From NCBI GenBank assembly GCA_048938855.1, contig JBHLLT010000002.1, forward strand, positions 160,001 to 224,000: DNA of 64,000 nucleotides, in the 5' to 3' direction. The notes beneath the pieces are model-generated. The model did no database searches and had not been told where the DNA came from. It was given only the letters and a program-made list of their open reading frames with translations. Position 1 is the stretch's first letter. Each line of letters begins with the position of its first letter. The position numbers and the translations under genes were made by a program. Positions 53,909 through 63,612 of this stretch are shown here, piece by piece. The stretch comes from Promethearchaeota archaeon (lineage in GTDB: Archaea > Asgardarchaeota > Lokiarchaeia > Sigyniarchaeales > SOKP01).

Positions 53909-54502
53909 TTAAAATCCCAAAATATATAACTTCAATAATCTTATAATCGAAGAAGCTAGATATGATTGATCTCCAAAACTTAATCTAGAAACTTTCAGTT
54001 CTAGTAATTCCTCTGAATTAAGAAATTCATCTTCTTGACTTCCTATGATGAAAACTATCTTTTCTTGTTTTTTAATAATACTAAATTGTGTAAAAAAATC
54101 TTTTCCTTGTTCCTGAAGTATGTATATATTATAGTTTAATTTTTTGAAATGTTTTATAGCGTCTAAAATATCCATACTTGATTTTTCTAACGTGTTTAGT
54201 GGGTTTAAAGGTTGAGCTTTTTTATAGAGAGATTGAATAACCCTAGCAAAATTATCTGTGAAGAGCAATTCGTTTTTTGGGAAAGTTTTATAATTAAAAT
54301 AATCTGAAGAAAAAATAAAGGTGCCATAATGATCTAGAAATACCCAAATTTGAACATTCTTCTCAAAATGATTATTTCTTATTAATGCTGCCAAAATACA
54401 TCGTGATATAACATCCAACCTTCCTGAGGACCCTGGAATATCTTTTATGTTATACTTATCTACTTTTACAGTTTTAGACTTGATAAAGAAGATAATAGTC
54501 AT
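53909..54502 (-). CDS. trmY: tRNA (pseudouridine-54-N1)-methyltransferase, SPOUT
   Basis: DIPGSSGRLDVISRC, PKNE, FIIG, LSFG..SYLAS. Confidence 0.8.
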   Translation of the reverse strand: MTIIFFIKSKTVKVDKYNIKDIPGSSGRLDVISRCILAALIRNNHFEKNVQIWVFLDHYGTFIFSSDYFNYKTFPKNELLFTDNFARVIQSLYKKAQPLNPLNTLEKSSMDILDAIKHFKKLNYNIYILQEQGKDFFTQFSIIKKQEKIVFIIGSQEDEFLNSEELLELKVSRLSFGDQSYLASSIIRLLKLYILGF

Positions 54503-60264: not shown

Positions 60265-60771
60265 GTGATCAATATTCACTTAGTCCTAACTTTTTTTCAT
60301 CAAATTAATGGCCCAAGTGTTTTATTATCTTACCCAGATGAAAAATTAGAAGAAAATCTCATCAACAAGTTAAAGAAATTTTTTGATTTAGATATTGATG
60401 AAACGTTTTTTGAAATAATATTAATAACTAAAAAAAAGAAAATAATTAATTTTAGTTTTGAGATCCCGTCGGAGTGGGCTCGAGGTAAAAAAGAATTTGT
60501 TATGCTCTCTTTAATAATGAAAAGAGAATATAAAAGTGAAGATCTTTACGCGTTCTTGGTCGATTCATGTTATAAAATCATAAATACTAAGAATGTATAT
60601 AAAGCACTCTATAAAAATTCAGATTTCCATTATAATGACATAGAAATTGATCTAAACTTTGAGATAATCAGAAAAATACTATTTAATTGTTTAAATAATT
60701 TGATATTAAGGATTGAAGATAAGATTAAAGGTGTAGATAAAAAAGAACCTTTTCCGTTTTCTAAAAAATAG
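60265..60771 (+). CDS. uDENN/longin-like protein
   Basis: LTFFHQINGPSVLLSYP resembles the uDENN/NPRL longin N-terminus; SEWARG motif. Confidence 0.6.
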   Translation: MINIHLVLTFFHQINGPSVLLSYPDEKLEENLINKLKKFFDLDIDETFFEIILITKKKKIINFSFEIPSEWARGKKEFVMLSLIMKREYKSEDLYAFLVDSCYKIINTKNVYKALYKNSDFHYNDIEIDLNFEIIRKILFNCLNNLILRIEDKIKGVDKKEPFPFSKK

Positions 60772-60773
60772 AA

Positions 60774-60784
60774 ATTTTTATAAT
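60774..60784 (+). promoter_or_regulatory. Putative TATA box for the downstream ncRNA
   Basis: TTTATAAT about 23-30 nt upstream of GGGAC at 60807; weak evidence in an AT-rich genome. Confidence 0.35.
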
Positions 60785-60804
60785 TTCATTATTCTATTTA
60801 TATA

Positions 60805-61122
60805 TTGGGACAACAATGACGGGCTAAATGCGTCAATCGAGGGCTCATAAAAATATTTGAATATATGATGATTATGAAGCGCATGAGTACGCATACACTA
60901 GAGTTGAGTAATCAATACATCTCCTGGAAAAATGGGCTCTTAACTTAGCAACAGATCAACGGTCTAGCAATGAAGTTTGAGTCAGTACCCTAACAGGAAA
61001 CATGATTACGTCCCAAAAAGGCATATAAATTAAAGCCTAGCACGAGAGAACATTTTTGATTTGAAAGGTATATCCTTAATATGAAAAAACAGTGTTAGTG
61101 TTTTAGGCAACAATAATATGCT
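60805..61122 (+). ncRNA. Box H/ACA guide RNA locus with three hairpins (60828-60897, 60922-61002, 61035-61112)
   Basis: Each hairpin has a lower stem, a pocket, an upper stem with K-turn/K-loop, and ACA 14-16 nt from the pocket top; hairpin 1 pocket is complementary to 23S UGC-U-A-CCUCGAU. Confidence 0.8.
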
Positions 61123-61130
61123 GAAATTTT

Positions 61131-61601
61131 TTAAAGCATACCAATGGAATCAGATCTAAATAATTCCTTCATTTCCTTACCTAACTCCGCTTGATCGGTT
61201 TGAAGATACCTGTTTAGAATTAAAGCAATTTTTGGGGACCATTTTTTCATTATAGCTCGAATGAAACCAATTTGAGCATTTTTATCCGCCACAATACATA
61301 AAACTCCTTTTCCAACTTTCATTGAAAAGATCATCCCTTCAAGATATTCGGTAATTTGCAAATCAATAGCCCCATAACCTAGAATATGACCCTGTTCCTC
61401 TCCTGCAACAAAAACAGCACCCCCTATAGCACCAATTTTTTCAACAGAGATCCCATTTTCATCAGAAAATTTAAATTTAGCTTGACTTAAAATCGTTATT
61501 CCTGTATCATCAGTGATGAGCGCAAATTTTAACCCGGGAGCACTATTTATGATTAAGGTTAAAATCTTCTTTAATCTAAGCTCATCCTCAGTGTAACTCA
61601 A
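61131..61601 (-). CDS. Roadblock/LC7 (MglB-like) protein
   Basis: ALITDDTGITI, IGAIGG, AQIGFIR. Confidence 0.85.
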   Translation of the reverse strand: MSYTEDELRLKKILTLIINSAPGLKFALITDDTGITILSQAKFKFSDENGISVEKIGAIGGAVFVAGEEQGHILGYGAIDLQITEYLEGMIFSMKVGKGVLCIVADKNAQIGFIRAIMKKWSPKIALILNRYLQTDQAELGKEMKELFRSDSIGML

Positions 61602-61809: not shown

Positions 61810-62157
61810 TTAGAAAAGCTCTTGTGATTTAATTAAACCTTTTAAAGGTCTTAGCCGACTCTTATATTCTTTAGATTTATCCAATAATACTAATAGCTTG
61901 TAATTTTTAGTTTTGTCTAAATCTCGTTTAATTTGAACTAAATGTGGATCCTCTATAAACCCCCCCTTTTTAACAATTGCAGATAAAGCCAAAGTGTTTT
62001 CAAGTACCCACAATTTCTTCGATATTTTAGACGCGATTGGGAAACCATGGCGATCGGTAATAACTCCGGCAACAAAGCTTGGGAAATTTTTCTCGATCCT
62101 ATATAAAAAATAATTAACCTCACTTTGGTTTATTAGTTTATCCATTCTTTTTAGCAC
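61810..62157 (-). CDS. Roadblock-like protein
   Basis: AGVITDRHGFPIAS. Confidence 0.7.
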   Translation of the reverse strand: MLKRMDKLINQSEVNYFLYRIEKNFPSFVAGVITDRHGFPIASKISKKLWVLENTLALSAIVKKGGFIEDPHLVQIKRDLDKTKNYKLLVLLDKSKEYKSRLRPLKGLIKSQELF

Positions 62158-63357: not shown

Positions 63358-63612
63358 TTAATTTATTTTAGTATAAATTTTGTCGTCGGGGTTAAAAGAT
63401 TGATTAGATAAAGCTTTGATTGAAATAAAGGGAAAATCTATTGGACCGAAAACATCTTTAATAAATCCAATTTTTTCATACTTCTCATTGTACACTGAGT
63501 TTTTAATTATTTGTTCTAATTTATTATTCCATTGTTTTGCTCTAAAGATCTGATGATTTTTTGAGGATTTTCCGAGATAATATAGATTTAATTTAACCCA
63601 GTTCTTTTTCAA
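63358..63612 (-). CDS. gar1: H/ACA RNP subunit Gar1
   Basis: VYNE..IGFIKDVFGPIDFPFISIK; gar1-tfb synteny typical of archaea. Confidence 0.88.
   Translation of the reverse strand: MKKNWVKLNLYYLGKSSKNHQIFRAKQWNNKLEQIIKNSVYNEKYEKIGFIKDVFGPIDFPFISIKALSNQSFNPDDKIYTKIN

Follow-up and report, generated by a model that had tools for sequence, protein, structure and literature searches.

What is encoded in a spacer between two convergent genes that is richer in GC than its neighbours? We analysed such a spacer in a Lokiarchaeia genome, in a window of 64,000 nucleotides (contig JBHLLT010000002.1, positions 160,001 to 224,000), in which positions 60772-61130 separate the stop codons of a gene for a 168-aa protein (+) and of a roadblock-type gene (−). 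No ORF of at least 50 aa lies within 60772-61130, and the GC content of the region amounts to 36%, whereas the three nearby spacers have 8-22% and the whole window 29%. An original prediction, made from the sequence alone, had noticed this GC-richer spacer and had read it as a transcribed, unannotated cluster of three box H/ACA guide hairpins close to gar1; every motif that it quoted was found in its place. We consider it highly probable that the region encodes a free-standing archaeal box H/ACA guide RNA with three motifs, related to HgcG, Pab40 and Afu4 and targeting 23S rRNA, since the element is conserved and covarying, carries ANA boxes, K-turns and rRNA-complementary pockets, is covered by RNA contigs and is found in a genome with the protein genes of the class. 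The predicted guide function and the three H/ACA hairpins are hence retained, while the notion of a cluster gives way to one RNA of about 315 nt (60806-61122, +), taken as one transcript on the basis of conservation, covariation, fold and RNA contigs.

Locus, fold and expression of the RNA

The RNA has a putative promoter of its own, consisting of a BRE-like purine run and a TATA-like box (60767-60783, the box at 60776-60783, +), which overlap the stop codon of the upstream gene. In 24 of 30 congeners the TATA-like word starts 30-31 nt 5' of where GGGA first occurs, and the start site is a putative one. A sigma-70 promoter scan of the region was disregarded, as its model is not applicable to archaea. 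At the 3' end, a T-run (61127-61132, +) that might act as terminator abuts the convergent gene of the roadblock type at its stop codon, and many relatives of the RNA have T-runs behind their last helix. The upstream gene (60265-60771, +) is small, yielded no Pfam family and faces two small genes downstream of tfb (61131-61601 and 61810-62157, both −). One of these is of the roadblock type, with a match to Pfam MAPKK1_Int at an E-value of 3e-5.

The minimum-energy fold of the plus strand reproduced the three predicted hairpins, with a z-value of −2.5 that was matched by 1 of 100 shuffles. When folded singly, hairpins 1 and 3 reached z-values of −2.9 and −2.7, hairpin 2 only −1.0. Of 36 congeners, 34 carry the RNA according to BLAST searches (identity 68-94%). 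Its neighbours are usually the same genes, and it also occurs in places from which the upstream gene has disappeared or in which another gene has taken its position. Across 30 sequences, 94% of the cells of the proposed structure pair, compared to 32-38% in a control with slid partners, and 20 of the 64 pairs are altered on both sides, in an alignment (A4) that was fitted to the structure model and whose covariation is therefore biased towards it. RNAalifold recovered most helices without the structure model, and the stem-internal loop-stem hairpins are backed by compensatory changes. Both the RNAalifold analysis and the survey of conservation and covariation across relatives, proposed earlier as checks, thus spoke for the prediction.

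An ANA triplet lies immediately 3' of each lower stem (ACA at 60895, 61000 and 61110). Relatives have ACA, AUA or AAA, and in 36 diverse Asgard copies of motif 1 the first A is present in 36 and the last in 35, the middle base being variable. In motifs 1 and 3 the K-turns sit 10 layers up from the pocket, in motif 2 it is 9-10 layers by direct count; the rule for archaeal H/ACA RNAs is about 10 layers for a K-turn or K-loop (PMC4652768). The most conserved parts of the RNA are the unpaired pockets, which match rRNA.

The three-hairpin anatomy as first described was correct, but overlooked a fourth K-turn and three enclosing helices. The outer helix P0 pairs 60806-60811 with 61010-61015 (+; 94% of cells paired, present in the RNAalifold consensus) and encloses motifs 1 and 2 as a single domain; the helices around motifs 2 and 3 start at or shortly after the ACA. 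The fourth, basal K-turn is built from a 5' strand with C-stem AAC, bulge AAT, GA and NC-stem (60812-60822, +) and from a 3' strand right after the motif-1 ACA (60898-60905, +), as assigned by alignment. Among 36 diverse Asgard copies its GA is invariant (36/36) and the partner GA occurs in 34-35, with C-stem and flanking pairs altered on both sides in an alignment fitted to the model. The basal K-turn is present in at least 11 Asgard families and absent from four. We suggest that it would form a fourth L7Ae site and that, together with the clamping helices, it probably serves to fold this long AU-rich RNA and to protect its ends.

Is the RNA made at all? Consistent with the predicted transcription, RNA contigs of close relatives from four metatranscriptomes of four studies are all confined to 60824-61106. 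They give neither strand nor ends, stem from related strains that are 85-99% alike, and could include DNA. The best contig comprises 282 nt at 98.6% identity. The flanking genes are without cover by such contigs, which is no proof of silence.

In RNAs of this class, Cbf5 attaches to lower stem plus ACA and L7Ae to the K-turn, with the uridine presented by the pocket. Each motif described here would bind Cbf5, L7Ae, Nop10 and Gar1 and present a 23S uridine to Cbf5 for conversion to pseudouridine. Genes for Cbf5 and Nop10 (each over its cut-off) and an L7Ae-like gene (E 6e-35, 121 bits vs a cut-off of 134.6) lie on other contigs. The gene of the core H/ACA protein Gar1 is located upstream of tfb at 63358-63612 (−; Pfam PF04410, E 9.6e-7, 28.9 bits, cut-off 29.3), at the predicted distance of about 2.2 kb. 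This proximity is no argument for the guide RNA, which is preceded by a TATA-like box of its own and, within this order, stays near tfb-gar1 in either orientation. Copies outside the order, as examined, have no tfb, gar1 or roadblock gene within 1.5 kb. The linkage is inherited gene order and not evidence of co-regulation, and gar1 is not co-transcribed with the RNA. Elsewhere in the window, a gene for a SPOUT-type RNA methyltransferase was found at 53909-54502 (−; Pfam Methyltrn_RNA_2, E 2e-12), which we take to be possibly TrmY, the tRNA m1-pseudouridine-54 enzyme.

Guide motifs and predicted 23S targets

Target prediction requires a reliable rRNA. The only rRNA contig of the assembly (G000:C18; 3.2 kb, 53% GC), on which 16S and 23S are linked, shares about 68% identity with the 23S of congeners, which are 78-93% identical to each other, differs from them in the helix-69 loop and is probably a contaminant. 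Targets were therefore predicted on congener 23S and 16S instead, with sites numbered after E. coli via PMC2584109 and PMC8307265. Guiding at 2496, 1915/1917 and 2554 is thus a prediction from complementarity to congener rRNA, in which the sites are nearly invariant (ten 23S compared). It counts against this reading that predicted archaeal targets often fail in tests (6/21 in P. abyssi).

Motif 1 (60828-60897, +) was delimited by alignment, covariation and target scan. Above the lower stem ATGCGT/ACGCAT (60828/60889), the alignment places a 5' pocket at 60836-60842 and a 3' pocket at 60881-60885, with the ACA (60895-60897) 14 nt from the pocket top. Stem, ACA and spacing are as originally described; the TTGA quoted as K-loop partner is instead the terminal loop of an added stem. 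The partner by alignment is 60850-60852, AAA here and usually TGA in relatives, so that in this genome a short stem has been added and a K-turn results (60850-60857/60863-60872, +), in which the second sheared pair is A.A and not G.A as in many relatives. The loss of this G speaks against our reading. In the target scan, the best of all uridines was 23S U2496 in helix 89, the U before CCUCGAU (score 26, next 18), with a score that was matched by 2 of 60 shuffled pockets. Motif 1 would guide U2496 in the usual geometry, with 7 + 3-4 pairs, 14 nt to the ACA and a 10-layer upper stem, and we regard this prediction as very likely correct.

Motif 3 including its enclosing helix (61021-61121, +; helix 61021-61026/61116-61121 by alignment) was recognised by covariation, model search and target scan. 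Its lower stem (61035-61043/61098-61108, with GCCTAG/TTAGGC at 61035/61103) and ACA (61110-61112) agree with the original prediction, which does not apply to the pocket: the proposed distance of about 14 nt measured 13 nt, and this register has no target, 58 of 60 shuffles being as good in the scan. The motif has a second register, supported by covariation, with a 5' pocket at 61044-61048, a free GTTA at 61094-61097 as 3' guide starting 16 nt from the ACA, and a 10-layer stem up to the K-turn (61057-61059/61080-61085, by alignment). The first register pairs the invariant GTT, its changes are almost all one-sided, and it may represent a closed form of the free RNA. For the covarying register the best site was 23S U1915, with 8 to 46 of 60 shuffles as good; the assignment draws its support from homology to Pab40 motif 3 and from the distances of 17 and 19 bases shared with SL2 of Haloferax sR-h45. 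The spacing from pocket top to ANA is 16 nt for U1915 and 18 nt for U1917, and five target bases stay unpaired. We thus think it likely, mainly by homology, that motif 3 guides U1915, and probably also U1917, in helix 69 in the atypical open-loop manner of sR-h45 SL2. A 16S site for motif 3, derived from contig C18, was rejected, as the contig is probably foreign and the site is absent with congener 16S.

Motif 2 (60909-61008, +; alignment, covariation, target scan) comprises an enclosing helix (60909-60914/61003-61008) with a compensatory change in one congener, the lower stem TCCTG/CAGGA (60922-60926/60994-60998), upper stems GGCTC/GAGTC (60935/60979) and AACT/AGTT (60942/60974), and a K-turn (60945-60949/60967-60974) with U at 2n, whose second sheared pair is A.U in this genome and G.A in many relatives. 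These stems and the ACA (61000-61002) had been identified correctly, but not the pocket register, for which 55 of 60 shuffles were as good. With the pockets placed by alignment at 60931-60937 (5') and 60983-60990 (3'), the top site was U2554 of the A-loop (score 29, next 21; 1 of 60 shuffles), a test that flatters the motif because the register was picked after inspection of the data. The 5' strand pairs with the A-loop over 7 pairs, and the duplex energies sum up to −18.9 kcal/mol for U2554 vs −9.7 kcal/mol for U2586. In this order, a CAG(U/C) strand precedes the old 3' guide; its CAG does not vary, and all 30 congeners have a pyrimidine next to it on the 3' side. In five of these, the ACCC word of the old guide is lost by a 4-nt deletion, which puts the U2554 register 13 nt from the ACA, and three copies from a neighbouring family have a textbook U2554 pocket alone, with two unpaired target bases. 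The distance from pocket to ACA here is 17 nt for U2554 and 14 nt for U2586. Archaeal guides are expected to have 14-16 nt here, 14-15 nt by a stricter form of the rule; the U2554 start falls outside it, and two or three pairs of the upper stem must open, both of which argue against this target. On balance, we lean towards the prediction that motif 2 guides U2554, which stacks on the A-site tRNA (10.1101/2022.07.15.499945), and keeps a residual fit to U2586: the motif would have gained the CAG(U/C) strand in this order and thereby its best fit to U2554 (7 + 4 to 7 pairs), perhaps retaining U2586 as second target.

But, could motif 2 of the same RNA still guide only the ancestral U2586, the A-loop match being incidental? 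In that register the 3' guide begins exactly 14 nt from the ACA, and the ACCC word is retained in most copies of the source genome's family. Most other Asgard copies match U2586 by a 5-pair 5' and a 5-pair 3' duplex, SL1 of Haloferax sR-h45 makes the equivalent pseudouridine, and Muller et al. expect this site for motif 2 of Afu4/Pf7. We nevertheless judge it unlikely, since the fit here comprises only 4 + 4 pairs with a U.U mismatch beside the target and the weaker of the two energies, U2586 is absent from the top matches of the scan, and ACCC could be deleted in congeners that all kept CAG. Moreover, one congener (G077) has C instead of U at the 2586-equivalent of its 23S and kept the pocket, if this is no sequence error. 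Other Asgard copies mostly fit U2586 at least as well as U2554, their pocket can pair with both sites (−15.7 and −15.9 kcal/mol in one copy), and a clear switch to U2554 was seen in Lokiarchaeia only. A pattern search for motif 2 in five genomes was drowned in chance matches.

The 23S rRNA of this genus has further peculiarities. Between helix 89 and the A-loop, in the helix 91 region, it carries a hairpin-like insertion of 30-44 nt that is absent from the four other Asgard 23S compared; helix 91 is not mentioned in PMC7594248. In the 23S of G077, an insertion of about 60 nt, probably an intron, sits within the loop of helix 69, immediately behind the 1917 target, and would split the motif-3 target until spliced. 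Further probable introns are located just past helix 69 in G061 (about 30 nt) and after helix 93 in G064 (about 780 nt) and G061 (about 125 nt).

Known relatives and rival readings

The search of Rfam that had been proposed as a check assigned no family: at E-values up to 10, the region gave chance matches only and none to RF00064. Below its cut-off, the Rfam HgcG model nevertheless matches 13 of 101 Asgard genomes (E 4e-13 to 4e-3), not including this one. The best of these matches has 51.9 bits vs the RF00064 gathering cut-off of 77, while a true Thermococcus HgcG scores 194 bits. Three of the 13 are matched at the same places by a hairpin-1 model (E 1e-6 to 7e-6), and since this model was built from the genus alone, the link to HgcG is not circular. 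On the Thermococcus HgcG locus, the hairpin-3 model, which included copies found via RF00064, has its best match at motif 3 (E 2e-4 in 8 kb), the hairpin-1 model only one of E 0.28. The HgcG consensus contains the same pocket words in the same order as the Asgard RNA, and the succession of a 2496-guide, a variable middle guide and a helix-69 guide is that of HgcG/Pab40. We thus see in the RNA the Lokiarchaeia version of a lineage that has HgcG/Pab40/Afu4 as relatives; as it misses the RF00064 cut-off, we file it under the H/ACA class, as a divergent HgcG relative and not as a member of RF00064.

Like the RNA described here, HgcG/Pab40/Pf7/Pho40/Afu4 (RF00064; PMC2377435) have three motifs, each with K-turn and ANA, and in HgcG/Pab40 motif 1 is directed to the 2496-equivalent and motif 3 to helix 69, under an own promoter. 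In vitro, motifs 1 and 3 of Pab40 act on P. abyssi 2588, which is E. coli 2496 by the numbering of this analysis, and on helix-69 position 2016 (PMC2377435). The motifs of Thermococcus HgcG span about 215 nt, compared to about 315 nt here, and each ACA runs directly into the next motif, without basal K-turn, P0 or enclosing helices. Motif 2 of Pab40 acts on 1932, whereas motif 2 here is a plain hairpin with its best fit to U2554. For Afu4/Pf7, the initial assignment of this motif was to a position in the A-loop (Afu 2601 = Pab 2647), for which the 2586-equivalent was substituted later. Haloferax volcanii sR-h45 (PMC7075261) has two stem-loops that correspond to motifs 2 and 3, lacking motif 1, a composition shared by one Asgard family. 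Its SL2 makes the equivalents of both 1915 and 1917 from one pocket, 17 and 19 bases from the ACA as in motif 3, but leaves four target bases unpaired and not five; its SL1 is a typical guide for the 2586-equivalent, in contrast to the best fit of motif 2 here. In yeast, snR46 (25S-2865), snR10 (2923) and snR191 (2258 and 2260) serve the same sites as E. coli 2496, 2554 and 1915/1917, all of them modified in human too. These are three separate two-hairpin RNAs with H box and without K-turn, and shared targets are not evidence of descent.

Class and mechanism of the RNA are already known, and the basal K-turn is absent from the Thermococcus HgcG compared. The RNA yields specific, testable predictions of rRNA pseudouridines for the archaea closest to eukaryotes. 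The literature, which was covered incompletely, yielded no H/ACA guide RNA of Asgard archaea and no archaeal guide for the A-loop pseudouridine 2554, of which this would be the first if our reading is true. If motif 2 modifies U2554, a guide has switched its target through a small insertion, and the dispute over Afu4 (A-loop or 2586) would be answered by one pocket fitting both.

Which other readings of the whole element deserve attention? Spacing in motifs 2 and 3 is atypical, all three sites lie in late-folding functional centres, and a definite higher-order shape is suggested by the additional K-turn and the clamps, as might be expected of an RNA that binds the H/ACA proteins but acts partly or mainly as folding chaperone for 23S domains IV-V, pairing with helices 69, 89 and 92 while the ribosome is assembled, in the manner of yeast snR10, which combines processing and modification. 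We find this decidedly improbable, since each pocket has at its centre a uridine that yeast pseudouridylates, the ANA boxes are retained along with upper stems of 9-10 layers, the relatives include proven modifiers, and no processing-domain-like element was seen. In eukaryotes, composite scaRNAs of the U85 type have a K-turn in addition to an H/ACA hairpin, and the composite H/ACA-C/D sRNA Pab21/Pf1 has an extra K-turn outside the H/ACA hairpin, as here. The basal K-turn could, in analogy to such RNAs, be a box C/D unit guiding 2'-O-methylation; its 5' strand is box C-like (ATGATG in many copies), with CTGA on the 3' strand in a few. In contrast to Pab21/Pf1, however, it closes motif 1 from below, without guide segment or C'/D' pair. 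The 3b.3n pair varies freely among four bases on either side and is U.U in only 11 of 30 congeners, and upstream of the D-like word lie the motif-1 ACA and lower stem, so that neither a box C with box D and conserved U.U nor a free guide of 10-20 nt was found. A composite RNA is thus very improbable. The location between two convergent stop codons and the missing Rfam match would also suit terminator hairpins, a 3' UTR structure or an RNase P-like RNA. We rate such non-guide readings as practically negligible: the element persists after loss or change of the upstream gene and across different gene contexts in the phylum, has its own TATA-like box and pockets that match rRNA, and is covered by RNA contigs that spare its flanks, and the RNase P covariance model gave no match to the region at E-values up to 10.

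Returning to the guide RNA, one may speculate that it forms a distinct Asgard RNP, with a fourth, basal L7Ae site and clamps that keep motifs 1 and 2 together as one two-hairpin domain, in which one transcript guides 2496, 2554 and 1915/1917; we consider this quite doubtful. Equally doubtful is the notion that such an RNA, serving positions for which eukaryotes use snR46, snR10 and snR191, is a candidate source of those guides by splitting. Direct descent is weakened by the restriction of the clear 2554 shift to Lokiarchaeia and by the at least equally good fit of most other Asgard copies to U2586.

Occurrence in Asgard archaea

The hairpin-1 model found a single copy in 94 of 102 genomes of the family. 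Of 150 Asgard genomes, 118 have a match to the hairpin-3 model, as do 61 when the 71 good genomes alone are considered. The count includes some false positives, since at least one weak match (G085, L258) is protein-coding sequence; these lie among the weak matches, of which a minority was inspected. Two complete genomes of the same order, each a single contig (4.36 and 6.04 Mb), also have copies. The whole-genome model search, in which few candidates were scored first, missed both of these copies, and they were found near tfb; misses are hence not to be equated with absences. In a pattern search of a genome collection, five of six matches were bacterial.

Shortened forms were encountered in other Asgard families, with motifs 2 and 3 only, with motifs 1 and 3 and little between them, or with an unrelated first hairpin plus motif 3. 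One genome carries a degenerate second hairpin 3 about 600 nt from the first (G180:C17, L116:400-488, −; E 5e-13). In the complete genome G044, a 39-nt stretch recurs nearly unchanged at six places and is probably a repeated element.
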